Positions 4,009 through 37,904 of a DNA stretch of 64,000 nt are shown here, piece by piece. The notes beneath the pieces were generated by a model. It was not told where the DNA came from and ran no database searches. It was given only the letters and a program-made list of their open reading frames with translations. Both the position numbers and the translations under genes were made by a program. Origin of the DNA: an uncultured Planctomycetota bacterium (lineage in GTDB: Bacteria; Planctomycetota; Planctomycetia; Gemmatales; Gemmataceae); NCBI GenBank assembly GCA_963750865.1, contig CAVVSQ010000002.1:14231-78230 (forward strand), written 5' to 3'. Each line of letters starts with the position of its first letter. Positions within the stretch are counted from its first letter, which is position 1.

Positions 4009-4119
4009 ACATGCCCGACTCACGCTGATTCCCCTGGGACTAGGCGTGTACTTCCTTTGCCAAACATATACCACATCCCACATTTATCAAAAACGCGCTG
4101 GGCGGAGCGACACTGAATG

Positions 4120-6976: not shown

Positions 6977-7075
6977 ACTAATCCTCTATTAATAGTGATT
7001 AACGATATTATTCTTCAGTTGGCATTCAATTTTTATAGTTATTTTACCTTTTTCCAGGTTTGCATCTTGTGGCCT

Positions 7076-7643: not shown

Positions 7644-7706
7644 GACAAGTCGATGGGCTGGTCTTGCGGGAGCTGCCAGCGGGCAAAGAAGGAAGGGCAA
7701 TCGGCC

Positions 7707-8135
7707 ATGTCTAGACGTAAGGGAAGCCTGCTGACCGTCGTACTATTGGTCGCGGTGCTACCACCGGGACTGATTGGAGTCCTGTGGATAAGAACGAGCG
7801 CGGCGGAGCCAGGTGTCACAGAGGCCAATTTCCGCTCCATCGATGTGGGTATGGCGGAGAAGCAATGCCGTCAGATTCTTGGAATGCCGAAATCCGCAAC
7901 ACGGGAGCGAGCCCGAGTGGGGATACCAGCGTATCTGGTCGTTCAGTGGGAAGAACTTAAACTAGGACTAACAATCGACATGGTGTTCGATTCAAGCGGG
8001 CGTGCAGAAGGCGGACTTCTTCTCAAGAGGACTTCTCAGAATGGGCAAACCGTTATTGCTTCTCTAAACATGGGGTTGGTGACAGATAGTTCCGAAACTC
8101 TGTTCGCTCGCCTCCGTCGCTGGCTTTGCCGGTGA
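7707..8135 (+). CDS. hypothetical membrane-anchored protein
   Basis: ATG at 7707 followed by RRKGSLLTVVLLVAVLPPGLIGVLWI (signal anchor). No domain recognised. The upstream part of ORF 7617.. lies in repeat R1. Confidence 0.5.
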   Translation: MSRRKGSLLTVVLLVAVLPPGLIGVLWIRTSAAEPGVTEANFRSIDVGMAEKQCRQILGMPKSATRERARVGIPAYLVVQWEELKLGLTIDMVFDSSGRAEGGLLLKRTSQNGQTVIASLNMGLVTDSSETLFARLRRWLCR

Positions 8136-8142
8136 CTAAAAA

Positions 8143-8411
8143 AGCATCATTCCCGCACGAACACTTCCTGACCACGCATCGGCCCCCTGGAAAGCATGCC
8201 CCAGGCGATTCAATCCCCAGAGCCACTCTTGGCCGCCGCCAATTCTTCCCATCTCAACCACTATGGCACTCGCAGTAATTCGCTTCCGACGGGCCAGGGC
8301 GGTACGCCCCGAGCGTCCGCCTCTTCTAGACCCGCTAAACCCATTCCTGGAACTGATTCTAGCCCGCCGTGGGCACCCGTTGCCAGGGCGAGGAGCATTT
8401 TCTTCCAGCGC
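8143..8411 (+). repeat. repeat family R1, copy e (chimeric: middle part, start of 3' part, then 5' part)
   Basis: 8143-8270 aligns with 5025-5065 plus 5784-5870. At ...GGCACTCGCA/GTAATTCGC (about 8270) it switches to the segment seen at 4733-4860 and 7114-7245. Confidence 0.75.
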
Positions 8412-8620
8412 CTGCCGGTTTTCTTCTTCACGTCCGCGTGCTTGTTTGTCCTCAACGGAGGACGCCAAGCACCATCAGCGCCGTGCCGCTTGAAGCAAGG
8501 CAGGACCACGCCCACTTTTACCCTCACGTAATTGCGGCCCCCGCTCCGTCCTTCATCGCCAGAGACGATTTGCAGCCTGCATCACGGAAGATGGCGGCGG
8601 GTCATTGCAATGCGGGAATC

Positions 8621-8914
8621 TTACATAAGGTGTTCGCGAAACCCGTTCGCGGGATCACGATAGATGTATTCAAGGAGCTGCTTGATCTGGAAATTCGCTT
8701 TGCGGAGCGCGGCAGGAGCCATCACAAACGAGACTTTCAGATTCTGTGGGTATGGCAAACCGCTAGCAAGTGTCTCGCGGACTTTCTCGGAGTCAAGCTG
8801 CAGCGCGTATCTAAAACTTCCTCTTACACGAGTTATTCGGTTGCTTTTGTTGATCTCAAGCTTGAATTCGCCGTCTTCTCCGCAAAATCCGAATTGGCGG
8901 TCTTCGCTCGTCAA
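8621..8914 (-). CDS. hypothetical protein (TTG start overlapping upstream stop, or 3' half of a frameshifted gene)
   Basis: 97-aa ORF. Its only start candidate is the TTG inside TCTTGACG, where the upstream ORF stops. Lower GC. Confidence 0.4.
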   Translation of the reverse strand: MTSEDRQFGFCGEDGEFKLEINKSNRITRVRGSFRYALQLDSEKVRETLASGLPYPQNLKVSFVMAPAALRKANFQIKQLLEYIYRDPANGFREHLM

Positions 8915-9168
8915 GATATCGCGCTCATGTAGTCACTGAATTCTTGAATGTACTGGAAGTCCACGTACCCGCCGAACGCTTCTTTGCACCCATCTATTTC
9001 CACATCGATACTGAACCGAATGAGACCCATTATTTCAAAAGCAATCGAGCGGGACGACGTTAGCTGCTTGGTTTTGAACGCCACACGAACCGTTTTGCCG
9101 TTCCAGTTTACTCCGGCAAGTTCGATTGTAGCAAAATCAAGAGTGTCATCTTTACCATCGCCTAACAT
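8911..9168 (-). CDS. hypothetical protein
   Basis: ORF 8911..9273 trimmed to ATG 9168 (MLGDGKDDTLDF...). The Arg-rich upstream extension looks non-coding. Confidence 0.4.
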   Translation of the reverse strand: MLGDGKDDTLDFATIELAGVNWNGKTVRVAFKTKQLTSSRSIAFEIMGLIRFSIDVEIDGCKEAFGGYVDFQYIQEFSDYMSAIS

Positions 9169-9327
9169 TTCACCGACCCTTTTTGCTGCTATCGAATGGA
9201 CACGACGCAGAGCGCGGAGGGCTCGCCGCGCTCCGCGTCGCGTGCCACCTTGTGGCCCCGACAAGCATTTCACCCATCACCAATTTTAGCCAAAACCGGC
9301 TCTTCCTCAACGCCTCGCGAAATCTTT

Positions 9328-9344
9328 GTAAGTCGTACTAGAAA
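9328..9344 (+). promoter_or_regulatory. conserved island motif copy 1 (GTAAGTCGTACTAGAAA)
   Basis: Ends 41 nt before the ardC-1 ATG. Same core at 10386, 15633 and 17282. Confidence 0.55.
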
Positions 9345-9384
9345 CGGCCAGACAAGTGACAAAACGAATCAGCCGGAGACAAAA

Positions 9385-10284
9385 ATGGCACGTCAAAATG
9401 ATATTCGCACTCAAGTGAATGGCAAAATCATCGAGGCCCTCGCCAAAGGACTCACCCCGTGGAAAAAGCCGTGGGTCGCCAGCAAGAATGCGGGAAATCC
9501 CGCAAACGCTGTGAGTGGACGCTCCTATCGAGGTATTAACCCTCTTCTCCTCGAACTTGCCGCCATGGACAAGGGTTTCAAATCGAAATGGTGGGGTACG
9601 TATCGCCAATGGCAAGGCTTGGGTGCGCAGGTCAAAGGTGGCGAGCGTGGCACCCGAATCGTATTTTGGTCCCCCGTCAAGCGGACAAGTAAAAACGAGG
9701 TCGGCGAAGAAACGCAGACGACGTTCCCACTTATGCGTGAATACACGGTGTTCAATGCCGACCAATGCCAAGGAACTGAGCGGTTTGCGGTCGAGCCTGC
9801 CAGCGGCACCACCGCCGTGGACTTCGAGCCTGCCGAAAACGTCATTGGAACCACAGGAGCCGATATCAGGCACCTCGCTGGTGACAAAGCAGCCTACCAC
9901 CGTCCGCCGCACGATTTCATTGTTCTGCCAACGAAAAGCCAATTTAACCAAGCACCCTTTGGCTTGGCTGGCTATTACGCGACGGCGTTCCATGAGCTAA
10001 TGCACTGGAGCGAACATCGCGTTAGCTGGAGCGGTAGCTACGCTCTTGGTGAACTTCGTGCCGAAATTGGGGCAGCCTACCTCGCCGCCGAAATCGGCAT
10101 CCCCATCGCGGACAATCTCGAAAACCACGCGAAATACCTCGACTCGTGGCTCAAGACGATGCAAGCCGATGCCAAAGTAATCTTCCAAATCACTTCGGCA
10201 GCAAGCAAAGGTGCAGATTTCATCCTCTCCTTCAGCCGCGAACCTCAGCCGAAACCACAAGAAGAAGAACTGGTGACCGCTTGA
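9385..10284 (+). CDS. ardC: ArdC-like antirestriction protein (ssDNA-binding N-domain plus zincin-like HExxH C-domain), copy 1
   Basis: KIIEALAKGLTPWKKPW...SGRSYRGINPLLL...KWWGTYRQWQGLGAQVKGGERGTRIVFW and FHELMHWSEHR...ELRAEIGAAYL. ATG at 9385. Confidence 0.9.
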   Translation: MARQNDIRTQVNGKIIEALAKGLTPWKKPWVASKNAGNPANAVSGRSYRGINPLLLELAAMDKGFKSKWWGTYRQWQGLGAQVKGGERGTRIVFWSPVKRTSKNEVGEETQTTFPLMREYTVFNADQCQGTERFAVEPASGTTAVDFEPAENVIGTTGADIRHLAGDKAAYHRPPHDFIVLPTKSQFNQAPFGLAGYYATAFHELMHWSEHRVSWSGSYALGELRAEIGAAYLAAEIGIPIADNLENHAKYLDSWLKTMQADAKVIFQITSAASKGADFILSFSREPQPKPQEEELVTA

Positions 10285-10385
10285 CCGGAGCCAGGCAAAA
10301 CAATCTTCAACGGCGGAGCTTGACAACGGCGGTTCCAGACGATCATGTGATCGCCGAGAACACAAGAACGGAATCGGCCAACAGT

Positions 10386-10400
10386 GTAAGTCGTACTAGA
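10386..10400 (+). promoter_or_regulatory. conserved island motif copy 2 (GTAAGTCGTACTAGA)
   Basis: Ends 22 nt before the ardC-2 ATG. Confidence 0.5.
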
Positions 10401-10421
10401 TTCTCTCGGAGGCAAACAAGA

Positions 10422-11285
10422 ATGTGCGACATCCATGAAAAGGTAACGAATCAAATCCTGGACGCTCTGAAAAACCAAGGTCCCATACCTTGGCGGAACT
10501 CTTGGTTGGCTCATGAAAACGCAGGCTACCCGATGAACGTGCTGTCCAACTTTCCTTATCGGGGTGTCAATGTCATCCTCCTGCAAATGGAGGCCAACGA
10601 GCGCGGCTACTTGTCCAAATGGTGGGCGACGCCTTCGGCTTGGAAGTTCAGGGGTTGCCCGGTCAAGGCGAACCAGGCGGGAACAGAAGTTTGTTTGCAG
10701 GACAAAAAAGGACTGCGCTGCGAGGCGCTGTTTAACGCGGAACAATGCGAAGGGGCGGACAGATACTTGGTCACAGACTTCGGTGTTGGCTTAACCAATT
10801 GGGATGCGGCTGATGAGGTTATCGCGGCCACTCGGGCGGACATCAGGCATGTGCCTGGCACCCAAGCCGCCTATTTTCGGTTGCCGAAGGATTACATCAT
10901 CGTGCCCTTAAAAGAACAATTTGTGGAAGGGGGATATGGCGTCATTGCGTATTACGGAACAATATTTCACGAGTTGGTTCATTGGTCGGAGCATCGCCTC
11001 GGATGGTTTGCCAATCCCGCTTTGCCCCTGGCTCCCCGGTACACCATCGGGGAATTGCGAGCAGAACTGGGGGCCTGCTTCATGGCTGGACAGTTGAGGG
11101 TTCCTCCGCCAAACAGCTTCGCGCATTTTTTACAGTTTGTTGGCAAGTGGGAGAAAGTGATGAGCGCCGACCACACGGCGATTTTCGACATTGCCGCCGC
11201 CGCCAGTGATGCCGTGGATTTCATATTGTCGTTCAGCCAACGTTCGCAACCCGCGACCAAGAAAAAGGGCCTGGTGACGGCATGA
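10422..11285 (+). CDS. ardC: ArdC-like antirestriction protein, copy 2 (divergent paralogue)
   Basis: QILDALKNQGPIPWRNSW...NFPYRGVNVILL...KWWATPSAWKFRGCPVKANQAGTEV and FHELVHWSEHRLGW...ELRAELGACFM. ATG at 10422. Confidence 0.9.
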   Translation: MCDIHEKVTNQILDALKNQGPIPWRNSWLAHENAGYPMNVLSNFPYRGVNVILLQMEANERGYLSKWWATPSAWKFRGCPVKANQAGTEVCLQDKKGLRCEALFNAEQCEGADRYLVTDFGVGLTNWDAADEVIAATRADIRHVPGTQAAYFRLPKDYIIVPLKEQFVEGGYGVIAYYGTIFHELVHWSEHRLGWFANPALPLAPRYTIGELRAELGACFMAGQLRVPPPNSFAHFLQFVGKWEKVMSADHTAIFDIAAAASDAVDFILSFSQRSQPATKKKGLVTA

Positions 11286-11521
11286 TTCGTTACTACCAAG
11301 AACGCGACACCGGCGATTACTTGTGCATCGACACGGCGACGAACCGCTACTACCTCGACATTTTTGGCAAGGACCATTTTGAGGGTCGGGCAACGGCCAT
11401 TGCCGGACTGGTCGGGTCGGTCTGCACGACAGGCATCTGCAGGGAGTATCTTCAGAAAAAATGCAAGCGAGTGGCTCGGCAAAATGTGCCAATCAAATGG
11501 CAAACGGCCATCGGCTATTAA
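11282..11521 (+). CDS. hypothetical protein
   Basis: 79-aa ORF whose ATG overlaps the ardC-2 stop (ATGA), suggesting translational coupling. Confidence 0.5.
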   Translation: MIRYYQERDTGDYLCIDTATNRYYLDIFGKDHFEGRATAIAGLVGSVCTTGICREYLQKKCKRVARQNVPIKWQTAIGY

Positions 11522-11531
11522 GGACAAAATC

Positions 11532-12482
11532 ATGTCGGAAAACCAGGAAATCAATGACGTGACGCCCACCGCCCTGGGTCACATCGTTGGTCAGCGGTCG
11601 GTATTGGACCAGGTGCGGGTCGCCATTGAGGCGGCGTTTGCGGATGGCAAAAAGTTTGACCACGCCTTGCTCGTGGGTCCACCCGGCCTCGGGAAAACTG
11701 CAAGTCGCTGCTATAATCGCCAGCGAAATGGCGACGGAGTTCCACGAGGTGCTTGGGCAAAGCATCAAGAATCCAGGCGACTTGAACGCCGTGCTGCTGG
11801 CGGCAAAGGATAAAGACATCGTCCATTTTGACGAAGCCCATGAACTAAGAAAGCCGTTTCAAACAAGCTTGTATCGGGCGGTCGAAGGCCGAAAGCTCTT
11901 CATCGAAGGCAGGTCCAGCAAAGTACAAAACATCCCCTTGGCGGATTTTTCGGTTTTGCTCAGCACCACCGATGAATATTGCCTGCTGCAACCCCTTCGG
12001 ACCGCATGAAATTGTTGCTGCGGTTTGAATTCTACTCCGAGGAAGAACTGGCAATTCTATTGCAGCAACGGACCCATGGTTTGACCTGGATCGTGGAAGA
12101 AGTGGTCTTTTCGCTGATTGCCCAGCGTTCCCGAGGCACACCCAGGTTGGCCCTTCGTCTCTTCAATCGGCTCGCCGCGTCTGTCGAGCGGAAGGTGAAA
12201 GAGCCATCGGCCTAAATCACCTAGAACGAGCTTGCCTCTTGGAACAAATCGACTGCCTGGGCTTGGGACATATCGAGCAGGAATACCTCCGCATTTTGGC
12301 AGGCGGTGACAGCCGGTTGAACGTGATAGCCAGTCGGTTGGGATTACCGGCACGCACCGTGAGCCAGGTTTCCGAGCCGTTTCTTATCGGGTCGGCTTGG
12401 TGGTCAAGGACGATAGGGGCGGCGGCAATTAACCCAATTTGGCAGGGAGCATCTGTCCAAAAGTCGCCCAGAAGATGTCTAA
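11532..12482 (+). pseudogene. RuvB-like AAA+ ATPase paralogue, at least 5 frameshifts, IS630 at its 3' end
   Basis: Pieces in three frames: GPPGLGKT / VAAIIASEMATEFHE...IVHFDEAHEL / PLRDRMKLLLRFEFYSEEEL...SRGTPRLALRLF / RRVCRAEGERAIGLNHLE...LGLGHIEQEYLRIL...EPFLI / LVVKDDRG / RRQLTQFGREHL. Order and motifs follow RuvB. Confidence 0.8.
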
Positions 12483-13680
12483 ATAGCCGTGCGCGATTAT
12501 GCGACACGTCGCCACGTGGGTCTGTACCGAGCGTACCGACGTGCGGCGCGGGTGTTGCGCTGGTGTAACTCATAGCGGACCGCACGCATTAGAGTGACCA
12601 TGTTGGGACATTGATGGTTGCGCGTTACCTTCGCATGTAGATCGCGCCATCTCAGTTCGATCCGGTTGTCATTGGGACAATAGGGCGGCAAAAAGTGCAG
12701 GACAATGCGTCCACCCCATTGTTGCAGCGCACAGTTCGCTATCTTGCTGGTATGAATACGATAGTTATCCACGATCAGATGAATGACACGCGCTTCGGGA
12801 TAACGATCGACCAGCTTGGCCAAGAGGGCCACGAATAAAACGCTGTTTTTTTGCTTGCCCTCCACCCAGTACAACAAGCCCGTCCGCGCATCCAACGCCC
12901 CGGCCAAGTAACGTTTCTCGTTTTGCCCCGGCGTCACCACCTGCTTTTGCAAGCCCGGCAACATCCAGTCCCAGCCGATCTTGGGATTCAAATGGATGTC
13001 CACCTCGTCGCCATACAAGGCGACTTCGTTGGCCGGCAAAGTGTCCAACAGCCGGCGAATGGTGTTCAAACGCCGTGTTTTCGCGGCCGCCGCCCACGGG
13101 CAACGCACCACCGGTCGCGGGCGTCCACGCCGGGCACCCAGACGACGCAAGGCTCGGCTCATCGTGCCGACGTGGACGCGCACGCCGGTCTGGCGCACCA
13201 TCGTTTTGACCAACAACTCGCGGGTCCAGGTTGGACGCCGCCAACCGTAGGAGTGTGGCTGCTTCAGGACAGCCCAATACAAGGCATCCAGATAGGCTTC
13301 GTCCAATTTCAAGCAGCCATTGTCCTCACGGCGGTCAAACAAACCAAGCTCGCCCTGCTCGCGGAAACGGGCCGCAACGCGATAGATCGTCGAGCGATGA
13401 ACCCGCAGCACCGAGCCATATGGCGGACCGAATGACCATTGAGAAGGCCGATGACAATCAGATAATGGGTGCGCAGCAGAGGAACGCGACAACGCCGAAA
13501 ATGGCGGTTCAGCTTGTCCTTGAAGGCCCCGCGAACTTTGGGGATAATACCAGTATTGTGCATGGGAGCTCCCTCCTTGACGGACAGCGATAAACTGTAG
13601 GAGGCGAGTTCCCATGTTTTGCTTTCTACCTTGAATTTAAGCGGCCGCAGCTGTGTCGCACAATCGCGCACGGCTATTTA
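12480..13680 (-). mobile_element. IS630-family insertion sequence
   Basis: 28-bp terminal inverted repeats TAAATAGCCGTGCGCGATTATGCGACAC (12480..12507) and reverse complement at 13653..13680 (1 mismatch). TA at both junctions, as expected for the IS630/Tc1 target duplication. Confidence 0.9.
12497..13563 (-). pseudogene. IS630-family transposase, -1 frame break near 13414
   Basis: N-terminal HTH frame from ATG 13563 (MHNTGIIP...LLNGHSVRHMA) continues as SVLRVHRSTIYRVAARFREQGE...DDE_3 core (YGDEVDIHLNPKIG...IVDNYRIHTS...LPPYCPNDNRIE) in ORF 12497..13615. No slippery heptamer at the junction. Confidence 0.85.
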
Positions 13681-13703
13681 GGTTTTGTTCAAAAGGTGTT
13701 CAA

Positions 13704-14171
13704 ATGTTTGCCGAAACAAAGGCCGTCGTGACAGTGTCCGAGATGGCCCGCATGTGCGGTTTGAGTCGCGCGAGATTTTACCAGCTTCAGCACATCGGCG
13801 TGTTCCCACCGCCACTATACGATGTGTCCACTCGTCGTCCAATTTATGTCGAAGAACTGCAAAAAGTGTGTCTGGAAGTACGGCGAAGGAACTGCGGCAT
13901 CAACGGCAAGCCGGTTCTTTTTTACGCTCGCCACCTTGGGTCACCAGTGGCCAAAGGTCCAAAAACCAAAAAGCCCCCGAAAGACAATCGACACGCCGAC
14001 CTCATCGGGGCACTGCACTCCCTCGGCCTGACGACCGCCACTGCTTCCAAGGTCGAGATGGCGGTCAAGTATTTGTTTCCGCAAGGGACAGGCGAGACGG
14101 ATAAAGCCGAGGTCATCCGAGCTGTGTTCGTCCATCTGAAGCGTCAGAATCCGGGTGATAACGTGGGGTGA
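13704..14171 (+). CDS. excisionase/AlpA-like HTH DNA-binding protein
   Basis: From ATG 13704: VTVSEMARMCGLSRARFYQLQHIGVFPPP is a MerR/excisionase-type HTH. Lies directly upstream of the recombinase. The ORF-track start 13653 lies inside the IS630 inverted repeat. Confidence 0.55.
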   Translation: MFAETKAVVTVSEMARMCGLSRARFYQLQHIGVFPPPLYDVSTRRPIYVEELQKVCLEVRRRNCGINGKPVLFYARHLGSPVAKGPKTKKPPKDNRHADLIGALHSLGLTTATASKVEMAVKYLFPQGTGETDKAEVIRAVFVHLKRQNPGDNVG

Positions 14172-14240
14172 TAAGTGCCATTATCACCCGAGTTAAGCAC
14201 CCGAAGTGTCAACTTTCTGTCGAATTGCTGGAGATAAGCC

Positions 14241-15152
14241 ATGAAGAATTGGGGCGATAATGTTTTTGACCATATCGCGGTCGGGCCGGAGGACGCCCCA
14301 CTGTTTGGTCGCTTCCTGGCTGCCCATGACTTTTCGGGGAACAGTCGGCGGGCCTTCATCCAGGACGTGCGGAAGTTCGCCAGGTGGTTCGCCTCGGCAA
14401 ACAAGGAACCGTTTCGGGTCGAGCCGTGTGACCATGAGGCACGTGACCGATTTCCGCGACCACCTTCGTCGGCAGGAAGGTCAAGCGGTGGCAACAGTCA
14501 ACCGCTGTTTGGTAACTCTTCGGCGCTACTTTGGCTGGCTGGTTGAGCAAGGCCACATCGTCACAAATCCTGCGAAAGCCGTGAAGGAACTCCACCGAGT
14601 CCAGCTTGGCCGAAGGGTCTGGAGCGGAGCGTTGTCCGCCGTCTGCTGCGGGAAGTGGAGTTGCGCGAGGATGTTCGCGCGGGGGCAATCTTCTCCCTCT
14701 TCTTGTGGACCGGAGCAAGGGTTTCCGACGCCGAGAACATGGAGCTATCCGACGTAATGCTGACGGAACGAGGCGGCACGGTCATCTTCCGTTTTGGCAA
14801 AGGCAACAAACAACGTTCCGTCCCTTTGCCGCTTCCCGCACGACGTGCCTTGCAAACCTACTTGGAAACACGCCCACTCGTCGAAAGCCAAAACGTTTTC
14901 ATCGGCGAACGCGGCCCTTTGAGCGACCGGGGCATTCGGGCTTTGTGCGACAAATATTCCGCGATCATTGGCGTCAGCCTGCACCCGCATTTGTTCCGGC
15001 ACACGATGGCCCATCAGTTCCTTGCAGATAACAGTAACGACCTGGTGGGCCTGGCTCAAATCCTCGGCCACGAGAACTTGAACACCACGGCAAGATACAC
15101 GAAGCGAACCAGCGAGCAATTGTCAGAAGCCGCCGACCGCCTCACTTATTGA
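14241..15152 (+). pseudogene. tyrosine recombinase (XerC/D-like integrase), two frameshifts
   Basis: N-terminal SAM-like domain in frames 14241.. and 14260.. (RAFIQDVRKFARWF / VTDFRDHLRRQEGQAVATVNRCLVTLRRYFGWLV). Catalytic domain in 14655..15152 (TGARVSD...GKGNKQR...HLFRHTMA...[12 protein letters not shown]). Breaks near 14425 and 14615. Confidence 0.85.
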
Positions 15153-15251
15153 CTGTGGCACTGGCTAAAACCAATGTGAAACGCATGGAATTTGCACTTT
15201 CAGACAGAATCGAAGTTCATGCCGCCAGGCTGACCAGTTGACTCCATAGCT

Positions 15252-15509
15252 TTAAGGTCCTACAGGTGGTTCCGCTTCTCGTTTGTCTCGTTTGAGTCGC
15301 ATTGCCTTGACGTTGAAATACCACCCTGCCAATAAAACCAGCAACGCAGTCGGAGTGCCGATTAGATAACGTAGTGTCGGCGAAATCTCCGGGCCAGGTG
15401 TAAGGCTAAACTGTACTGGATTGAGTAGCGGATAATACACAAACCCTAATGCGATAACCCCCGATAAAGCAAGAGTCGCCGCGAAGATCGAGTAAAATGA
15501 TGTTTTCAT
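15252..15509 (-). CDS. small two-TM membrane protein
   Basis: ATG 15509. Two hydrophobic helices and a basic C-terminus. Low GC. The only minus-strand ORF inside the island core. Confidence 0.45.
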   Translation of the reverse strand: MKTSFYSIFAATLALSGVIALGFVYYPLLNPVQFSLTPGPEISPTLRYLIGTPTALLVLLAGWYFNVKAMRLKRDKREAEPPVGP

Positions 15510-15632
15510 ATGTGCTACCAATGAGACAGTAGGAAGCTACGTCGGTCAGCATACCACCTCCTACGCGGCATATCAATAACGTACTCCGTCTGGGCCTTCT
15601 CACTGCGGCGGGCACTGGCATTCTCATCTGCC

Positions 15633-15649
15633 GTAAGCCGTACTAGAAA
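15633..15649 (+). promoter_or_regulatory. conserved island motif copy 3 (GTAAGCCGTACTAGAAA)
   Basis: Ends 44 nt before ATG 15693, at the head of the small-gene array. Confidence 0.5.
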
Positions 15650-15692
15650 TCGACATGGCAAAGTCAGTGGCCTTCAAACCTAGGAGACAACC

Positions 15693-15821
15693 ATGCCTGA
15701 GTTCGATTTCGACGGCTTTTTCGACGGAGCAGATGAGCTCGATGACGGGATGGATCAAGGCAGCGAGTACGAGGATGGCTTCAGCCTCTTCGACCCGGAC
15801 ATGCAAGATAACGCTGATTAA
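15693..15821 (+). CDS. 42-aa hyper-acidic peptide
   Basis: AGGAGA 6 nt upstream of ATG. MPEFDFDGFFDGADELDDGMDQGSEYEDGFSLFDPDMQDNAD. Below the ORF-track cut-off. The next gene starts 14 nt after its stop. Confidence 0.45.
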   Translation: MPEFDFDGFFDGADELDDGMDQGSEYEDGFSLFDPDMQDNAD

Positions 15822-15834
15822 GGGGGGCAAGCTG

Positions 15835-16029
15835 ATGGACATCGTGGACAAAGTCATTGCTTATGAGGATGGCACTTTGGACGAACAGGCGACGATTGCC
15901 TTTTTCCAAGAACTCATCGACTCCGGTTGGGTTTGGCAGTTGCAAGGTCGCTATGGTCGAACCGCCGCGAGCCTTATTGAGGCGGGCCTATGCACGCGGA
16001 GACCGGTTAAACGAGATCGTGAAGGTTGA
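15835..16029 (+). CDS. small conserved phage/plasmid-type protein
   Basis: MDIVDKVIAYEDGTLDEQATIAFFQELIDSGWVWQLQGRYGRTAASLIEAGLC. I recall this pattern from mobile-element small proteins, with no family name. Confidence 0.5.
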   Translation: MDIVDKVIAYEDGTLDEQATIAFFQELIDSGWVWQLQGRYGRTAASLIEAGLCTRRPVKRDREG

Positions 16030-16032
16030 ACC

Positions 16033-16383
16033 ATGGACGCTTTTCTCAACGCCTACATCGTCGCCGCCCTCTGGTCGTCAAACGACGAAGCCACACCAGA
16101 GGGCGGCGAACCGCTTGACGCAAATTACGGTCCCAACGACCTCCATGCCGAGACTCTTGAAAAAATGAAAGCCGATTGCGACAGGTTCCAGGCCGAGAAT
16201 GCCACGGACATCGCAGGAAGCGAGGAAAGAGCTGGCCACGACTTTTGGCTAACCAGAAATCATCACGGCTGCGGCTTTTGGGATGGCGACTGGCCCGAAG
16301 CGGGGGAACGCCTCACTCAAGCGTGCAGAAACTTCCCTGAGGTCAATCTCTACGTGGGGGACGACGGCTGGATTTACTGCTGA
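16033..16383 (+). CDS. conserved ICE/plasmid accessory protein
   Basis: AALWSS...AGHDFWLTRNHHGCGFWDGDW pattern recalled from ICE/plasmid accessory regions. Starts 4 nt after the upstream stop. Confidence 0.6.
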   Translation: MDAFLNAYIVAALWSSNDEATPEGGEPLDANYGPNDLHAETLEKMKADCDRFQAENATDIAGSEERAGHDFWLTRNHHGCGFWDGDWPEAGERLTQACRNFPEVNLYVGDDGWIYC

Positions 16384-16408
16384 TTCCCGAACAGGGAAAG
16401 ACAAAACA

Positions 16409-16627
16409 ATGTACGCACTTGTCGAAACTCGTGGCGGTATCGTGTCCGGTGTCACCTTACACGATACCCATATCGACGCGATTAATCGAGCCTGCCACAT
16501 CGCCGAGCAAAACGGTCTATGTGAAACCGACGAGGCCAAGCAAGAAGTTCTCGACGCCTTGGGAAGCCATGACTCCTACCGATGCGGCCATTACCGCGTC
16601 ACTGTCGTTGAAGCGATCAAAACTTAA
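16409..16627 (+). CDS. small hypothetical protein
   Basis: 72 aa from ATG 16409, co-directional and closely packed. Confidence 0.5.
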   Translation: MYALVETRGGIVSGVTLHDTHIDAINRACHIAEQNGLCETDEAKQEVLDALGSHDSYRCGHYRVTVVEAIKT

Positions 16628-16642
16628 TGGGGGGACTTCACC

Positions 16643-16912
16643 ATGGGCCTCACGGCAAAAGAATTAGCTCAAGCGGTCCGCGATGAACGCATGGAATTCG
16701 ATGATGCCCTGATGGAATTGCTCATGCAAAACCAGCCCGACCAGCCCGACCTGGGGTTCTTCATGATGCTTAAAGTCGCAATCGGCTACGCGAAATTAGA
16801 CCGCTGGGACAAGCAACTCGCAATATCCGATGACGACAGCTTGAGCGTGCGTGACATCATCGAGAGATTTGACCTGGGGCCGTTTCTTGAGATCGACGCA
16901 AATGAGGATTGA
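16643..16912 (+). CDS. small acidic hypothetical protein
   Basis: Intact 89-aa ORF, 15 nt after the previous stop. Confidence 0.5.
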   Translation: MGLTAKELAQAVRDERMEFDDALMELLMQNQPDQPDLGFFMMLKVAIGYAKLDRWDKQLAISDDDSLSVRDIIERFDLGPFLEIDANED

Positions 16913-17045
16913 GAATTTCCGGGCATGGCAGGCCACAGCTTCGAGGACACATTGGAGCTAGAACGGCGTAAAGAACATTTGAATCTAAGGCGCACTCAAA
17001 GCGATGTCCAGGCGACCGACGAGAAAGAAACAAAGGAACGCTGCG

Positions 17046-17252
17046 ATGCTTGAACCGCATGATTTTCAGGTAAGCAACGAAGGCACCATTTGGCTGTTCA
17101 CGCCACTAAACGAACGTGCCAACACCTTTGCTCAGACCGAACTTGGACTGGAAGCATGGCAATGGGTCGGAGATGGTTTTGCCATCGAACATCGCATTGC
17201 TCGCCAACTTGTTCAGTCCTTAAAGGAAGAAGGCTTTGAGTTTCAAAAGTAA
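17046..17252 (+). CDS. small hypothetical protein
   Basis: ORF 17004..17252 trimmed to ATG 17046 (MLEPHDFQVSNEGTIWLF...). Confidence 0.45.
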   Translation: MLEPHDFQVSNEGTIWLFTPLNERANTFAQTELGLEAWQWVGDGFAIEHRIARQLVQSLKEEGFEFQK

Positions 17253-17281
17253 GCCGTGGATCGTCCACAACAACGGTTTGC

Positions 17282-17298
17282 GTAAGTCGTACTAGAAA
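17282..17298 (+). promoter_or_regulatory. conserved island motif copy 4 (GTAAGTCGTACTAGAAA)
   Basis: Ends 39 nt before ATG 17337. The flank AACGGCA resembles copy 1 (ACGGCCA). Confidence 0.55.
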
Positions 17299-17336
17299 AC
17301 GGCAGAGTGGCAAACAAACACGAAAAAGGAGCCATC

Positions 17337-17582
17337 ATGCCTGACCCAACCGAAGCCATCCGTCGCCAACGTATCGTCGAAATCAATATTGAGCCTGGCA
17401 GTCGTCAATCCCTGGAGTCCCAACACGGCCAGGTGTGGGACACCGACGAACTTGGCGAGGCTTTTGAGGTGATTGGCTTCATGGCACCGTTTGTGGTTGT
17501 CTCCCGGAAAGCCGACGGCGAAAAAGGCAGCCTGGAATTTCAACATGAGCCCCGGTTTTATTTCAATTTTCAACCGCATTGA
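17337..17582 (+). CDS. small hypothetical protein
   Basis: AAGGAG 7 nt upstream of ATG 17337. 81 aa. Confidence 0.55.
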   Translation: MPDPTEAIRRQRIVEINIEPGSRQSLESQHGQVWDTDELGEAFEVIGFMAPFVVVSRKADGEKGSLEFQHEPRFYFNFQPH

Positions 17583-17594
17583 CGAGAGGGCAAC

Positions 17595-18020
17595 ATGGAC
17601 AAAGACCCCGAGTATCTGACCATCAAATATCTCTGCCCCAACTGCAACTTAAAATGGGAAGAGCAGTGGACATGTGCCTGCGACTCGGAATGTCCGAATT
17701 GTGGTCTGAGCAACATTATGGCACTTTCGTGGGATACAGCCCGAGGTAAACGACTGTTCCGTCTCGGTGAAGTCGTCGCCACACCAGCAGCCTTGGCAGC
17801 TCTGGACGAGAGCGGTCAAACGCCGGACTTTTTTTTCGACCGCCATGCTGCGGGCCAGTGGGGTCTCATTGACCAAGACGATGCGCGGCTCAATGACAAG
17901 GCAGTACGCAACGGCAACTGGATTCTCTCGGTTTACCAAACCCTCAAAGGCAAAACGTTCTGGATCATCACCGAGAGCGACCGAAGCGTCACGACGCTCT
18001 TGCTGCCCGAAGAGCGTTGA
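17595..18020 (+). CDS. zinc-ribbon fused to a widespread ICE/plasmid small-protein domain
   Basis: N-terminus CPNC...C.C...CPNC. C-terminus VATPAALAAL...GQWGLIDQDD...ILSVY......FWIITESDRSVTTLLLPEE matches the family recalled as ..GDWG.L...D...N..A......S.Y......IWIITE.DRS.TT.LLPEEY. Confidence 0.65.
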   Translation: MDKDPEYLTIKYLCPNCNLKWEEQWTCACDSECPNCGLSNIMALSWDTARGKRLFRLGEVVATPAALAALDESGQTPDFFFDRHAAGQWGLIDQDDARLNDKAVRNGNWILSVYQTLKGKTFWIITESDRSVTTLLLPEER

Positions 18021-18045
18021 CCAAACTTAAAAGGATGAATTAGCG

Positions 18046-19089
18046 ATGGGATTAACGATTCACTACACGTTGAAAACCAAACAGCATGCCCCTTTTGGCG
18101 AGGGTCACGAGCAAGATAACGCCAAAGAGGTCGAGCAGATCGTCCATAAGATGCGGCAACTGGCCATGGACCTGCCGTTTGAGGAAGTGGGCGAGGTCGT
18201 GAACGTGGCGGGTAAGGATTGCGATTTCGAGGCCCGCCGAGCCGAACTGCAAAACGGCGACGCAAAGAACGAAGGGCTATTTTGGCTGTTAATTCAGGCA
18301 GGGAAGAGCGTGGGGTGCCCGTGGAACAAGCACATGAGCCGCAAGCTCAATCCGACCCGCATTATCGCTTTTGATACCTGGCCTGGCCCTGGAAGCGAAG
18401 CGGCCAATTTCGGCCTCTGTCATTATCCCGCCGAAGTCGAGTGGGAGTACAGGCCAGAGGATGACCAGCGTTTTGAAGAGCTCACCAAATCCGGCGTTCG
18501 CGAGTTTTCGTGGCACAGATGGAAACGTTGCCGCAAGTTGGACCATTACCGTCCAACCCATGAGTTGCGAGAAACTCGCAAGGTGCCGACCAAACTGGCG
18601 GGCTGGCACTGGGGCTCCTTCTGCAAAACACAGTATTCGAGCGGCCCGAAGTGTGGGGGCATCGCCAATTTCCTCCGCTGCCATATCTCGGTCATCACGT
18701 TGCTGGACCGAATCGCGAAATTGCCCGACTTGAAAGTCCGTGTGGACGATGAAGGAAAGTATGGCCCAAGCACCTACTCGGACGACTGGAAGGAAGCCTA
18801 CGATGCGGGTCGCAAGCCCATCTACCGCCGCCATAAGGGCAAGTACAACCCGGCTGCGCTGGCGCAGGAAGTCGGCGAGTGGAACACGATGATCGCGGGG
18901 GTTGCTGGCGCTCTTAGCGATGCGCTAGCCGCTGGCGGGATGAAGCTGGAAGCTCCCATAAAAGGCTTTTCCGATTTCGAGCAACTGGAATTCAAGGGCC
19001 ACAACCAAAAACATTTGTCTCCTTTCCTTCAAGCAATGGCGAAACTCGGCAAGGCAAACGCCGCTGGTGACCTTGGGCCGAGCGATTGA
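18046..19089 (+). CDS. hypothetical protein (347 aa, no recognisable domain)
   Basis: Long intact ORF with ordinary protein-like composition, 25 nt after the previous stop. Confidence 0.65.
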   Translation: MGLTIHYTLKTKQHAPFGEGHEQDNAKEVEQIVHKMRQLAMDLPFEEVGEVVNVAGKDCDFEARRAELQNGDAKNEGLFWLLIQAGKSVGCPWNKHMSRKLNPTRIIAFDTWPGPGSEAANFGLCHYPAEVEWEYRPEDDQRFEELTKSGVREFSWHRWKRCRKLDHYRPTHELRETRKVPTKLAGWHWGSFCKTQYSSGPKCGGIANFLRCHISVITLLDRIAKLPDLKVRVDDEGKYGPSTYSDDWKEAYDAGRKPIYRRHKGKYNPAALAQEVGEWNTMIAGVAGALSDALAAGGMKLEAPIKGFSDFEQLEFKGHNQKHLSPFLQAMAKLGKANAAGDLGPSD

Positions 19090-19191
19090 GCAGGCAACGC
19101 ATTTCATCGTGGTGAATCCTTGCGCACCGGGATGATATCCACAGGGTCTTGCTGCCGAGAAATGCGTTCCAGTAACCCTTGAAAGAAAAAA

Positions 19192-19749
19192 ATGTCAAAT
19201 TACTTGGGAAACTTCTTTCGTGACCGTCGAGACGAATTTGGCCTCACGCTCGGGGAGCTGGCCCGAACGCTGGGCTACCGCAATGTCACAAGGGGCGTTC
19301 GACGCATCTTCCACCTTGAGCGCGAAGGGACCATCAAGGAAGACCTTCTGATAAAGCTCGCCGAGGCACTGGGAATCGAATTGCCCACCGTGGAACGGCT
19401 GATTGACGAGGACCATAAGGAACATCTTCGTCAATGGGAACTGTGGGTGAACGAGTCGCAGCCTATGTTTCTGGTAGTGAAGCTAATGCCAGCGGTGTAC
19501 TCAAAAAAAGCCCTGCCTCCCGAAGTCACGACACCTGAGCAAGCTGAAGCCTGGGCTTGCGAGTTTGCTCGGCAGCATCGGCTGCGGGTCTGCCTGGTTC
19601 TCTCCAGGCGGCTGTCAGTGTGGATTGATGCCGACGGTAACGTCGAGACAAGAACCGAAGCCACTCCTGGCGAGCCGAATACGCCCTGGATGAAACTCCC
19701 GGGTAACCCGCGAAAGTTCCTGTTCGGGCTCCAAGATAGCCATGAATGA
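19192..19749 (+). CDS. HTH (XRE-like) DNA-binding protein with unknown C-terminal domain
   Basis: FGLTLGELARTLGYRNVTRGVRRIFHLEREGTI...LIKLAEALGI is an HTH_3-like N-terminus. 12-nt inverted repeat 19094..19105 / 19159..19170 upstream. Confidence 0.65.
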   Translation: MSNYLGNFFRDRRDEFGLTLGELARTLGYRNVTRGVRRIFHLEREGTIKEDLLIKLAEALGIELPTVERLIDEDHKEHLRQWELWVNESQPMFLVVKLMPAVYSKKALPPEVTTPEQAEAWACEFARQHRLRVCLVLSRRLSVWIDADGNVETRTEATPGEPNTPWMKLPGNPRKFLFGLQDSHE

Positions 19750-20389
19750 CCCAGACTTCAAAATTCGTTTCCATCACATGACCATCCGTGACCTGGACGA
19801 GCAAAAGTTCGTTGTAGCGAAGCTCCGGCGTGTAAGCTCGTCTCCCGTCCACCTTGGAACCGTGTGCAAACCAACGGAGAGCGCTGTGGGGCGGCTGGCC
19901 GACATTTTTCGTCTGGGAATAAACAGTCGCAACTATGCCGACCTTTGCAGGATTGAGCGGCTTCTACGGGAGCGGTTTCATACGGACCCAGAATCCGAGT
20001 GGCGTGCATGCAACGAAGTCATTTGCCGTTCCTTGGGAGTCGAGCGGCTGGATGCCATCGCTCCCAAAAAGCCAATGTGGTCAAGTCGGTGTTCTGGTTT
20101 TTCCGTGACTTTTCACACGGCAAAAATGCTCGACCTGCCATATGTCGTGGCCAGCGTGAACGGCATTTTTGGGTCCCCGGCACCGCTCTTCTTGACCTGG
20201 CCCAGCGAAAAGGAAAGTGCCATTGAGAGGCTTCGAGATGTTTTCAGGGTTGGCTTGCGGGGGCGGGCTTTTCGGGATTTTTTGGAGGTTGGTCGGGAGT
20301 GCGGGAAAGGCGAGGACGAGATTGTGGCGGAGTGGAAGGCGTGCGAGAGGGCGGCGTGGTGGGCTTTGGAGCGGGTCGTGCGACATTGA
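19742..20389 (+). CDS. hypothetical protein with internal duplication
   Basis: ATG overlaps the end of the HTH gene by 8 nt. Two similar halves: ESAVGRLADIFRLGINSRNYADL...EWRACNEV and ESAIERLRDVFRVGLRGRAFRDF...EWKACERA. Confidence 0.55.
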   Translation: MNDPDFKIRFHHMTIRDLDEQKFVVAKLRRVSSSPVHLGTVCKPTESAVGRLADIFRLGINSRNYADLCRIERLLRERFHTDPESEWRACNEVICRSLGVERLDAIAPKKPMWSSRCSGFSVTFHTAKMLDLPYVVASVNGIFGSPAPLFLTWPSEKESAIERLRDVFRVGLRGRAFRDFLEVGRECGKGEDEIVAEWKACERAAWWALERVVRH

Positions 20390-20409
20390 TTTTAATTGGA
20401 ATTAGCAGT

Positions 20410-20445
20410 CAAAAACCCGTGAGCAAACGGTGGTCATGGGGAGGG
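20410..20445 (+). repeat. direct repeat copy 1 (candidate att-like site)
   Basis: CAAAAACCCGTGAGCAAACGGTGGTCATGGGGAGGG versus 22119..22155 CAAAAACCGCCCGAGAAAAAGGTGGTCATGGGGAGGG. The last 17 nt are identical. Confidence 0.5.
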
Positions 20446-20583
20446 ACTGGACGCTCAAATATATATGTGTTTTTTTCCCCTTTCACCGAGCAATCTCCAA
20501 TTGAGCAATCTTTCCATGAATGTCCGCAATTCGCACGTGCAGACCCTCTCTTACGGGACCGCCGTGAGATTGCGTGTTGCTCA

Positions 20584-20760
20584 TCATATACGTCGGCTAT
20601 CCAGGCTTTTTGCCTTGGTTGTTGCCCACGTAGTCAGCATGTTTCTCTTGCACTGTGGGCACAGAATCAGGTTACTGTGCGGCTGCCGAAACTTCACCGG
20701 CGTCCCACACAACGGGCAAGGGAGCGTTTGGGTGGTCAGTTTTTTCCGCTTATTATTCAT
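20584..20760 (-). CDS. possible 58-aa zinc-ribbon protein
   Basis: MNNKRKKLTTQTLPCPLCGTPVKFRQPHSNLILCPQCKRN... (CxxC...CxxC). Below the ORF-track cut-off. No clear RBS. Confidence 0.3.
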   Translation of the reverse strand: MNNKRKKLTTQTLPCPLCGTPVKFRQPHSNLILCPQCKRNMLTTWATTKAKSLDSRRI

Positions 20761-20906
20761 GCTTCACCTGCGGCGTGCTGTTACCGAATGCCCCAACAAG
20801 GCCGCTACTTGAACATCAGGAAAGCCGTGGGCACGGGCATAGCCGTAAGCAATGCCCCGATTTGTCTAGGCCAGCTGGAACTGCTCAGCCATTACTGAAA
20901 TGGTGT

Positions 20907-21614
20907 CTAGTCATCCCAAGGCCAAGGGCCATCGCTATTTCGCATTATTGCCGCACGAAGCGTCGCCTGGTTAGTGTTTTGTGAGACACGGACCGTGCTG
21001 CCATCTACCATAACGACATGAGAATACCCCTCGAAGAAGCCCCCTAATTTTGGAAGAGGTTGGTTCTCATCATAAGGTATGTCCTCTGGCTTAGTCCATG
21101 GAACTGATTGCCCGGCTTCTGCAATCAGTATTGTGTATGAACGCCGGGGAAAGTCTTCCTTGATTCGCCATCCCTCACGCCCTTCAAACGCTGTCCCTTT
21201 GCCAACGAATACTTGAAACAAAGTTGTGTAAGGCTCCAACGGCGGGTTTCCCTCAAGGGGACAATACGAATACGGAATGTTTGGGAGTAGCCGGAGGTTA
21301 TGCGGGCTGTCCCACGGCTCGTCGAGCTTGAACTGACGAAAAAGGTCCTCTTTTTCTAAATAAGGAAGGAGTAAAACTCGCCAGCTGAGAAGCGGCACAC
21401 CATCTCTACTGTACACAGCTGCCGGAGGCAACCGCCCATGCTTTTCGTCGTATTTGTGCATGGCCCAGGCCAACTCCTTCAAGCAAAATCCTGGAACGTA
21501 CCTCCCCTCCTTGTCAGACCTGGTTCGAGGGTCCTCCTTGTTCCAGCAGGCGTAGAACGTGATGATGACGCAGACCAAAGCCACGACCAAACCGATTTCG
21601 AGGAGGCGACGCAT
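20907..21614 (-). CDS. DUF1559-domain protein
   Basis: LSWRVLLLPYLEKEDLFRQFKLDEPWDSPHN is the DUF1559 signature. Has an N-terminal TM helix but no obvious prepilin-type motif. Lower GC. Confidence 0.85.
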   Translation of the reverse strand: MRRLLEIGLVVALVCVIITFYACWNKEDPRTRSDKEGRYVPGFCLKELAWAMHKYDEKHGRLPPAAVYSRDGVPLLSWRVLLLPYLEKEDLFRQFKLDEPWDSPHNLRLLPNIPYSYCPLEGNPPLEPYTTLFQVFVGKGTAFEGREGWRIKEDFPRRSYTILIAEAGQSVPWTKPEDIPYDENQPLPKLGGFFEGYSHVVMVDGSTVRVSQNTNQATLRAAIMRNSDGPWPWDD

Positions 21615-37747: not shown

Positions 37748-37904
37748 ACGCCGCACGGCCTGGGACCGCCAATCTGATGATTGGCTATTTCGTTAAACCT
37801 GCCAAGCAGGAGGTTGGCGTTCCCGGGCAATGCTTGACCTGGAACGCAATTCCGAACAAGATGGAGGAACGGGACGACGATTTTGTGCATTGCCGAGGAG
37901 TTCC

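Follow-up and report, generated by a model that had tools for sequence, protein, structure and literature searches.

Leading-region anti-defence islands lie beside the origin of transfer (oriT), on the side opposite the relaxase gene and traM, and all of their genes are on the transferred strand (Samuel et al. 2024, PMC11541004). These islands are enriched in known anti-defence genes and in genes for single-stranded DNA-binding protein (SSB), methyltransferases and toxin-antitoxin systems; their Frpo/ssi promoters are long imperfect hairpins upstream of genes (PMC11541004). In the IncW plasmid R388, the promoters PardC, Pssb, Porf7, Porf12 and Porf14 are repressed by ArdK/StbA, and a transcriptional burst follows transfer (PMC3937220). 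Here we describe a block of co-directional genes at 9.3-20.4 kb of a 64-kb stretch of DNA from an uncultured member of the Gemmataceae (Planctomycetota; contig CAVVSQ010000002.1), which shares some features with each of these systems. This whole stretch is referred to as the window. On balance, the block is probably an integrated, and probably immobilised, copy of a family of small (~5-15 kb) planctomycete elements. Positions are coordinates of the window; L001-L057 are labels of related or comparison loci, L006 being the Ralstonia plasmid pB1903 and L007 a Methylobacterium plasmid.

The ORF map, translations and domain scans give ~18 co-directional open reading frames (ORFs) on the + strand between 9.3 and 20.4 kb. 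They encode, in order, two ArdC proteins (ArdC1 and ArdC2), a small protein (orf79), a RuvB-like AAA+ ATPase, a helix-turn-helix (HTH) protein and a tyrosine recombinase; 11-12 small cargo ORFs follow, up to position 20389. A preliminary description of this DNA had reported a strong strand bias, and every supported gene from 9385 to 20389, apart from the transposase of an insertion sequence, is indeed on the + strand. The minus strand of the block holds only an IS630 transposase gene (12497-13615) and an ORF for an 89-aa membrane-like protein (15252-15521); the latter is unsupported, with a sub-threshold DUF6203 match only and no homologue in related loci. The tight packing described for the genes after the recombinase is confirmed: 11 genes separated by 3-30 nucleotides (nt) or overlapping had been claimed, and the 11-12 ORFs found there have gaps of -8 to 102 nt.

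The same architecture is found around every nearest relative of ArdC1 that was looked up: one or two ArdC genes, small ORFs, a RuvB-like gene, a gene for an HTH protein of 150-190 aa, a gene for a 303-aa recombinase, and co-directional small genes with no Pfam match. A scan of metagenomes with the catalytic domain of the recombinase returns 32 loci at 60-89% identity. The RuvB-like/HTH/recombinase trio is contiguous in every locus with enough sequence (at least 16 loci). The architecture is conserved in L001, L003, L004, a JGI contig, L008, L010, L011, L014, L016, L019, L026, L032, L033, L038 and L056/L057. ArdC is almost always present; it is downstream of the recombinase in L014 and L026 and is replaced by ParB-like genes in L056/L057. 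Homologues in other members exist for 14 of the ~18 + strand ORFs of the window. Cargo content is highly variable and its order is shuffled between elements; L010 has the core genes without a cargo array.

Flanks differ from locus to locus, insertion sequence (IS) elements accumulate in them, and members bounded by host genes are only ~5-15 kb long, some of them ending at host genes after ~5-10 kb. One gene set recurs, with differing flanks, in no fewer than 16 metagenomic contigs that are unrelated, which bears out the proposal that the block is an island of the mobile-element type. No relaxase, type IV secretion system (T4SS), primase or phage structural gene is present in any related locus examined, and short contigs have no terminal overlaps that would indicate circular forms. 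A literature search found no paper that describes the RuvB-like/HTH/Xer-like combination or ArdC-bearing planctomycete elements; the family is apparently undescribed. Two local rearrangements are seen among its members. L010 contains a duplicated segment (L010 10396-18569) with the 3' part of the recombinase gene and three FGE-sulfatase genes (recombinase fragment at 15975-16256), and L033 has two RuvB-like genes in tandem (L033 3647-5630).

The core of the element is the trio of RuvB-like, HTH and recombinase genes. The RuvB-like gene (11532-12482, +) is a probable pseudogene: its RuvB_N, AAA_lid_4 and RuvB_C domains (Pfam) are spread across four frames. Compared with the intact orthologues of L001 and L003, its frame path is 3>1>3>2>1>3, which corresponds to one insertion and four single-base deletions, all at short runs; the gene has its own stop at ~12480. 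The domains confirm the RuvB-like ATPase of the preliminary description, while the gene itself is broken by about five single-nucleotide indels. The intact L003 orthologue has the RuvB_N, lid and winged-helix domains and scores 229 bits against a RuvB equivalog cut-off of 282; the ATPase is therefore a full-length RuvB paralogue.

The HTH gene (13704-14171, +) encodes a basic protein (155 aa, pI 9.9) which resembles Xis and other recombination directionality factors. It is 50-67% identical in every family member and is always located between the RuvB-like gene and the recombinase gene. It had been called excisionase-like; the call stands on a match to PHROG 2790, 'excisionase and transcriptional regulator', and that match is weak (E 0.0076).

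The Xer-like tyrosine recombinase gene (14241-15152, +) is also a probable pseudogene. Its C-terminal piece matches Phage_integrase (7e-24). Relative to the intact 303-aa protein of L003, the first and last parts share a frame and a central stretch of ~175 nt is read in the +1 frame, due to two compensating frameshifts; the starting frame has a stop codon at 14544-14546. The recombinase and Xis-like genes are both intact in relatives. The block is thus 'integrase-bearing', as had been stated, in that a tyrosine recombinase gene is there, while in the window copy this gene and its RuvB-like partner look inactivated. The best NCBIfam match of the L003 recombinase is XerC (171 bits; cut-off 335).

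In the FtsK/XerCD/dif system, a motor protein activates the Xer recombinase. The trio is similar in that an Xer-like recombinase is genetically coupled to a DNA motor ATPase of the hexameric type; unlike FtsK, the putative motor is a RuvB paralogue, and its coupling to the recombinase is suggested by gene adjacency alone. We know of no description of an invariant RuvB paralogue coupled to a recombinase.

An IS630-family insertion sequence of 1203 bp (12479-13681, -) separates the RuvB-like gene from the genes downstream. The transposase (DDE_3; 12497-13615) passes the family model (NCBIfam transpos_IS630, NF033545; 169 bits against a cut-off of 100), and the element ends in inverted repeats of 29 nt (97%) with a TA at either junction, all of which agrees with the original call. 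It is the only copy in the window. The insertion point is the TA of the RuvB-like stop codon, and no gene is truncated; in-silico removal of the element gives a 22-nt spacer, as in L003.

The lesions of the window copy are unevenly distributed. The 1.95 kb occupied by the RuvB-like and recombinase genes contain seven frame disruptions, and the ~6.8-8 kb of coding sequence for ArdC and the cargo contain none (P ~1e-5 for all seven falling in these two genes). This density exceeds the measured background 13- to 27-fold (P 1e-6 to 1e-8). Independent inactivations are seen in relatives: the RuvB-like gene is split in L004, and the recombinase gene is truncated in L001 and interrupted by an IS in L056/L057. 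It is likely that the decay of the mobility module is real rather than an assembly error. In L011, a ~3.2-kb insertion interrupts the RuvB-like gene (L011 4788-8847).

The main competing explanation is that the frameshifts are assembly artefacts and that the element has remained intact and active. Copies with disruptions come mainly from ERZ2503xxxx assemblies, which from their contig naming are presumed to be long-read, and short-read JGI contigs mostly have intact genes. One element was assembled twice, as L056 and L057, and over 19.2 kb the two versions disagree at five 1-nt indels, so some frameshifts may be assembly errors; these indels are at short runs and are the same kind of lesion as in the window. 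They alter the gene calls of ParB and of a transposase and give a direct gauge of indel noise. The RuvB-like and recombinase genes of the window both regain their original frame. Genes of the host look broken as well: a histidine kinase gene (1774-2983, -) looks split, with PAS+HisKA and HATPase_c in different frames; a DUF1501 gene (38494-39357, +) is probably split or truncated, as it covers profile positions 142-390 only; and an aldo-keto reductase gene (36831-37796, +), which covers profile positions 61-199 only, is perhaps truncated. These genes, like the L056/L057 differences, make assembly error a genuine possibility; they fit a low background of assembly indels or pseudogenes. A survey of the whole window for frameshifts by overlapping open frames is too noisy at its GC content to be informative. 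However, seven events in 1.95 kb are far above the measured background and no such lesions are seen in the adjacent genes; the IS630 insertion stands under either reading. The artefact explanation is consequently rather unlikely, with a smaller though still appreciable chance of being correct.

The same pattern of lesions is relevant to a second alternative, in which loss of the mobility genes left the cargo as domesticated host DNA, retained for its use to the cell (e.g. for repair of DNA or for defence against further invaders). All disruptions are in the RuvB-like and recombinase genes and the ArdC and cargo genes are open, at P ~1e-5 for uniform decay; L004 has the same pattern. However, a single locus gives little power, and recent inactivation would leave cargo intact without selection. 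The high variability of the cargo between elements also fits poorly with a fixed host function, and domestication is therefore improbable.

ArdC1 (9385-10284, +) is a full-length ArdC-family protein of 299 aa, with Pfam matches to the N-terminal, ssDNA-binding domain ArdcN (PF08401; 2.8e-38) and MPTase-PolyVal (1.1e-26) and a match to PHROG 7245, 'anti-restriction protein' (2e-69). ArdC2 (10422-11285, +) is a divergent paralogue of 287 aa with both Pfam domains (ArdcN, 3.9e-20). Both align over their full length with R388 ArdC (PDB 6sna; E 7.5e-48 for ArdC1 and 1.5e-22 for ArdC2), which confirms the tandem of divergent ArdC paralogues noted earlier. In the C-terminal gluzincin domain of the family (reference structures PDB 6sna and 6i89), the HExxH motif is HELMH in ArdC1 and HELVH in ArdC2, aligned with H201-H205 of R388 ArdC; the glutamate metal ligand, E229 in R388 ArdC, is matched by the Glu of GELRAE in both paralogues. 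The equivalent of Y255 is Tyr in ArdC1 and Phe in ArdC2. By sequence, both proteins belong to the ArdC family, and anti-restriction activity is predicted for them; such activity in the recipient during conjugation has been shown for R388 ArdC only (PMC7213743).

Tandem ArdC pairs are also present in L004, L010 and L019. ArdC1 has 1,269 strong homologues, one of them named as coming from a Planctomycetaceae genome; a scan of a genome collection with ArdC1 gave only a weak match in Opitutales. The ORF following ArdC2, orf79 (79 aa; 11282-11521, +), overlaps the ArdC2 stop by 4 nt and is translationally coupled to it, in agreement with the small coupled ORF reported previously. ORFs 62-66% identical to orf79 are found in L004, L005, L056 and L057; it has no Pfam, PHROG or NCBIfam match.

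A short motif, GTAAGYCGTACTAGA, occurs four times in the 64 kb, against 0.01 copies expected; each of the four lies within the block, on the + strand. Copy 1 (GTAAGTCGTACTAGA; 9328-9342) is 42 nt upstream of the ArdC1 start, copy 2 (10386-10400) is 21 nt upstream of the ArdC2 start, copy 3 (GTAAGCCGTACTAGA; 15633-15647) is 45 nt upstream of an ORF for an acidic peptide and copy 4 (17282-17296) is 40 nt upstream of an ORF for an 81-aa protein. Their positions suggest a division of the block into four units. In L003 this motif is present six times; the copies at L003 positions 8746 and 11413 precede the orthologues of the acidic-peptide and 81-aa ORFs, respectively.

Most of the members examined have a motif of their own. 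L004 and L011 have in common a related motif, AAYTGTACCAAG (10 and 8 copies, respectively), while L014, L026, L032 and L056 each have an unrelated one in 7-13 copies; a 12-mer count finds no such motif in L016, L019 and L033. The motifs are 13-22 nt long and are located on the gene strand, 5-70 nt before most start codons, ahead of core genes as well as cargo. Homologous genes bear the motif type of the element in which they reside. In L014, the motif reads GGTTGAC-TACG-GTCTTAACC and could fold into a small hairpin whose loop is of the UNCG type.

The closest documented logic for these motifs is the establishment regulon of R388, which likewise combines ArdC with several units under a common repeated upstream signal. 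By analogy, the motifs are putative element-specific promoters or operators. Unlike R388, the family has motifs that vary from one related element to another and no conjugation module, and no homologue of ArdK or StbA was identified. Two other functions were considered for the motifs. A role as sigma-70 promoters was rejected, as a second conserved block is missing upstream and matches in a consensus scan are not enriched; the unit boundaries, too, show neither a sigma-70-like promoter nor a terminator. A role as cassette recombination sites was rejected since the breakpoints of relocated genes are 180-400 nt from any motif.

Repeats near gene starts are also seen in the two plasmids used for comparison. 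The small-gene array of the Methylobacterium plasmid (L007) has ~11 copies of TATCCRATATGG near gene starts. pB1903 (L006) has repeat units of ~100 bp upstream of its SSB, ArdC and F5-methylase operons (255-594, 4070-4217 and 8168-8315); these are possibly Frpo-like elements.

The cargo begins with the acidic peptide (15693-15821, +), which has 42 residues, 16 of them D or E and none K or R, and a net charge of -16. It is 57% identical (E 1e-13) to a 43-aa ORF that occupies the corresponding position in L003 (8805-8936), directly after a motif copy. It is followed by a DUF7417 protein (15835-16029, +; Pfam PF24192, 1e-17; PHROG 3908, 1e-22), with homologues in L003 and L055, and by an acidic protein of 116 aa (family F6; 16033-16383, +; net charge -16), which matches PHROG 1915 (1.7e-26) and is 74% identical in L003 and L004. 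The F6 family is present on nine proteobacterial plasmids; on a Methylobacterium plasmid it is part of a similar small-gene array. Four small ORFs come next. Of these, orf72 (16409-16627, +), orf82 (17004-17252, +) and the doubtful orf42b (16925-17053, +) are without a homologue among the loci retrieved and match no family; orf89 (16643-16912, +; net charge -12) has two relatives in L055. The acidity of three cargo proteins (-16, -16 and -12) is compatible with DNA mimicry and is not evidence for it.

The 81-aa protein (family F12; 17337-17582, +) is 64-80% identical in L003, L004, L032 and L055. The 141-aa protein after it (17595-18020, +) combines a unique N-terminal CxxC..CxxC extension with a widespread C-terminal domain of ~95 aa, F5; it has 666 homologues and is present in most family members. 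The F5 domain is found on 191 plasmids, 81 of which are conjugative. In pB1903, an F5 homologue is part of a leading-region array with SSB, ArdC, an N6-methylase and KleA, which adjoins, on the upstream side, the gene for the T4SS coupling protein; this is the strongest connection of the block to plasmid leading regions. The preliminary description associated several cargo families with plasmid accessory regions; this is supported by the F5 domain in the pB1903 leading region and by the matches of the DUF7417 and 116-aa proteins to PHROGs 3908 and 1915.

The largest cargo gene encodes a 347-aa protein (family F7; 18046-19089, +) with 1,903 homologues and no Pfam match; the family is present in L003, L004, L014, L054, L055 and the JGI contig. 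A 185-aa Xre/CI-type protein follows (family F8; 19192-19749, +; Pfam HTH_3, 7e-5; PHROG 3 'transcriptional repressor', 2e-4), which is 41-42% identical to proteins of L016 and L019, likewise near the right end of their arrays. The last gene (19742-20389, +) encodes a 215-aa protein with an internal duplication, the halves of which align at E 2e-11; it has 53 cluster representatives (best, 57% identical) and no family or PDB match. Measurement thus confirms that the 42-aa peptide is hyper-acidic and that the 215-aa protein is internally duplicated. The description of these proteins as orphans does not hold: the 347-aa and 215-aa proteins have the relatives given above and the acidic peptide is conserved in L003.

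In the gap between the 347-aa and HTH_3 genes (19090-19191), a hairpin with a stem of ~10-12 bp (AACGCATTTC...GAAATGCGTT) folds as single-stranded DNA (ssDNA) with a z-score of -1.9; it could be a terminator or a regulatory site. In L055 (a 438-kb contig), the gene of the 347-aa family is interrupted by a minus-strand gene for a 339-aa protein (L055 8338-10960). The L055 array also contains a ComM/Mg-chelatase fragment, as does that of L026.

The preliminary description assigned the block to the leading-region anti-defence arrays of plasmids. What the two have in common is a co-directional array of many small genes, ArdC, and a family (F5) which is present in a genuine leading region; cargo families also recur in plasmid and phage arrays. 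In larger, related arrays of planctomycetes, ParB-like genes, DUF932 and an orphan N6/N4 methyltransferase are present as well. Unlike leading-region islands, the block has no relaxase, T4SS, SSB, PsiB, known anti-CRISPR protein or ssDNA promoter structure of the Frpo type; it is chromosomal, tied to a recombinase module and planctomycete, and its short motifs precede single genes or gene groups. The comparison is supported as a good functional analogy; membership of that class is not supported.

Several results weigh against the reading of the block as a mobile element with an anti-defence or establishment set. Firstly, Pfam families of relaxases and TraM have no match in the window or in the called genes of related loci. 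No relaxase or T4SS is present in any locus, and entry as ssDNA, which is the known setting of ArdC, is therefore hypothetical. Secondly, there is no Frpo-like structure: ssDNA folds of gaps of at least 84 nt have z-scores of +1.1 to -0.5 (folding alone), the hairpin at 19090-19191 being the exception. Thirdly, ArdC, in two copies, is the only known anti-defence-type gene in the window. The rest of the cargo has no match to a characterised anti-defence protein in Pfam, PHROGs or NCBIfam profiles or in a PDB sequence search, so the anti-defence reading draws on ArdC and guilt by association.

Fold comparison, which had been put forward as a way to detect anti-defence likeness, did not provide it: the models of the 347-aa and 141-aa proteins match no known anti-defence protein. 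The AlphaFold2 model of the 347-aa protein (pLDDT 84, pTM 0.73) has no significant fold match in PDB or BFVD, and that of the C-terminal domain of the 141-aa protein (pLDDT 92-98) has none in PDB. Fold matches resembling RAMP and RelE/HigB proteins are weak (E of at least 0.03, TM score below 0.5) and were not taken as evidence.

Fourthly, the conserved HTH protein was rejected as the reader of the motifs, since its recognition region is identical in elements with different motifs; the HTH_3 protein is found in only some members. Fifthly, no convincing direct repeats of the attachment (att) type flank the block, no tRNA target is near any of 18 loci, and no sequence is conserved after the recombinase stop; integration and excision are therefore putative. 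Finally, a survey of planctomycete plasmids (preprint) lists one putatively conjugative and three mobilizable plasmids, and reports that no conjugation has been observed within the phylum.

Integrative mobilizable elements, cis-mobilizable elements and tyrosine-recombinase islands are similar to the family in other respects. They are small, carry a recombinase and an Xis-like gene, have no mating-pair-formation genes and have variable cargo; decay and IS insertion are frequent. Unlike them, the family has no relaxase, no recognisable att repeats and no tRNA target; it has an invariant RuvB paralogue, and the recombinase is often internal to the array.

Phage ancestry is another explanation for a recombinase-linked array of this kind: the block could derive from a defective temperate phage, or from a phage satellite, and represent its early or lysogeny region. 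This would explain the integrase, the Xis-like protein, a CI-like repressor, ArdC, and small acidic early proteins with repeated early promoters; single-block repeated promoters do occur in phages. ArdC (PHROG 7245), the DUF7417 protein (3908), the 116-aa protein (1915) and the F10 family (8203) match PHROGs, and the HTH_3 protein weakly matches phage repressors. However, capsid, terminase, portal and tail families were found neither in the 64-kb window nor up to 10 kb away from the long related loci examined. The preliminary description had likewise reported no relaxase, T4SS or phage structural gene, and searches with Pfam and PHROGs, which covered the block, the flanking DNA and the remaining large ORFs of the window, find none. 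There is no PHROG match to the right of the block (21.9-27.6 kb), and a prophage extending in that direction is unsupported. A recombinase scan of 2.9 million viral contigs returns distant integrases only (31-38% identical), and elements bounded by host genes are only ~5-15 kb long. A phage origin is an unlikely explanation.

An integron-like platform, on which the recombinase would shuffle promoterless small-gene cassettes at the motifs, is very improbable: in integrons, too, a tyrosine recombinase adjoins small co-directional ORFs that form a variable array and are separated by repeated sites, and the shuffled cargo order, the array-free core of L010 and the homogeneous element-specific repeats before most genes recall the species-specific attC sites of chromosomal integrons, but the recombinase is Xer-like rather than IntI (53 bits for the L003 protein on the integron-integrase model TIGR02249, cut-off 265) and is co-directional with the array, not divergent, while the motifs lack the extended dyads of attC, precede ArdC and the RuvB-like gene upstream of the recombinase as well, and are well away from the breakpoints of relocated genes.

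Beyond the gene content, the family-wide synteny, the motifs, the lesions and the plasmid contexts, which are directly observed, and the assignment of ArdC to its family, we infer the following roles for an integrated planctomycete element. The core trio would carry out integration and excision. In this scheme, the recombinase would generate a Holliday junction as intermediate, with the HTH protein deciding the direction of the reaction and the RuvB paralogue working on that junction or on the DNA. ArdC, or ParB-like proteins in some relatives, together with the shuffled, small and often acidic proteins would form an establishment set, expressed en bloc on entry into a new cell; ArdC would shield the incoming DNA from restriction, and other products would target the defences or the physiology of the host. 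Common control would be exerted through the short element-specific motif, as promoter or operator, in the manner of the ArdK regulon of R388. No transfer machinery is encoded, and movement from cell to cell would therefore need a helper element or another route. In the window copy, the IS630 element has split the operon, and the RuvB-like and recombinase genes have probably gained frameshifts; the ArdC and cargo ORFs are still open.

A more far-reaching proposal is that these loci are an unrecognised class of planctomycete element, in which a RuvB motor is obligatorily coupled to an Xer-like recombinase and an Xis-like protein, and which has a modular establishment or anti-defence set wired by the motifs. 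The motifs would be dedicated promoters or operators, read by a putative factor, which co-evolve with each element, and large unannotated families such as that of the 347-aa protein would be new anti-defence or establishment effectors. This joint proposal is tentative, and we consider it more doubtful than probable. If it is true, it provides indirect evidence for frequent conjugation-like entry of DNA in a phylum where conjugation has not been observed.

Mobile elements of planctomycetes are almost unknown. A widespread family with ArdC and plasmid-type establishment genes would imply that DNA enters these cells regularly and meets host restriction. The conserved families of the 347-aa, 141-aa and 116-aa proteins, the acidic peptide and F10 are tractable candidates for anti-defence screening. 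The invariant trio suggests an unstudied module of motor-assisted site-specific recombination. The upstream motifs are a clean regulatory signal that can be tested, and possibly a source of expression parts for planctomycete genetics.

The borders of the block are known only approximately. The preliminary description placed its start at 8621; this position is set by two small minus-strand ORFs (8621-9273) with no homologue or domain, so the left border is not established there. It is somewhere within 6976-9328, and the right border is within 20389-20907. GC content is ~0.54 from 1 to 33 kb and ~0.60 further on, so the block is not marked out by its composition. The window contains no tRNA gene. 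DUF1559, DUF1501 and FGE-sulfatase genes flank the block and indicate a planctomycete host.

Just to the left of the block, segments 7113-7430 and 8220-8421 are ~80-90% identical; they correspond to paralogous minus-strand ORFs (7167-7541 and 8136-8468), neither of which has a family match. FGE-sulfatase-domain genes adjoin the element in the window (6134-6976) and in L001, L010, L012, L014, L016, L054 and the JGI contig. In L010 and L016 the stop of the FGE-sulfatase gene is 10 nt from the recombinase stop; in L016 the gene lies between the recombinase and the cargo. The FGE-sulfatase gene could be a preferred target or part of the element.

Two genes further to the right resemble genes of L004. 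A PP2C phosphatase gene (32625-33503, -) is 64% identical to a gene flanking the L004 element (L004 534-1448), and an ORF at 31206-31577 (+) resembles a small protein encoded between the two ArdC genes of L004 (L004 9269-9808). Both are located just before the GC step at ~34 kb. The island may therefore extend beyond the block or have a mosaic structure.

In three loci, members of one family of hybrid histidine kinase and response regulator are encoded no more than a few kb from the element, in differing orientations: the window (1389-2983, -), L019 (699-3044) and L032 (10662-13115). The window and L019 proteins are 52-56% identical. At the far end of the window, a gene at 55926-58961 (+) encodes a 1011-aa protein which combines a Ser/Thr kinase domain with a tubulin-like Tubulin_2 domain.

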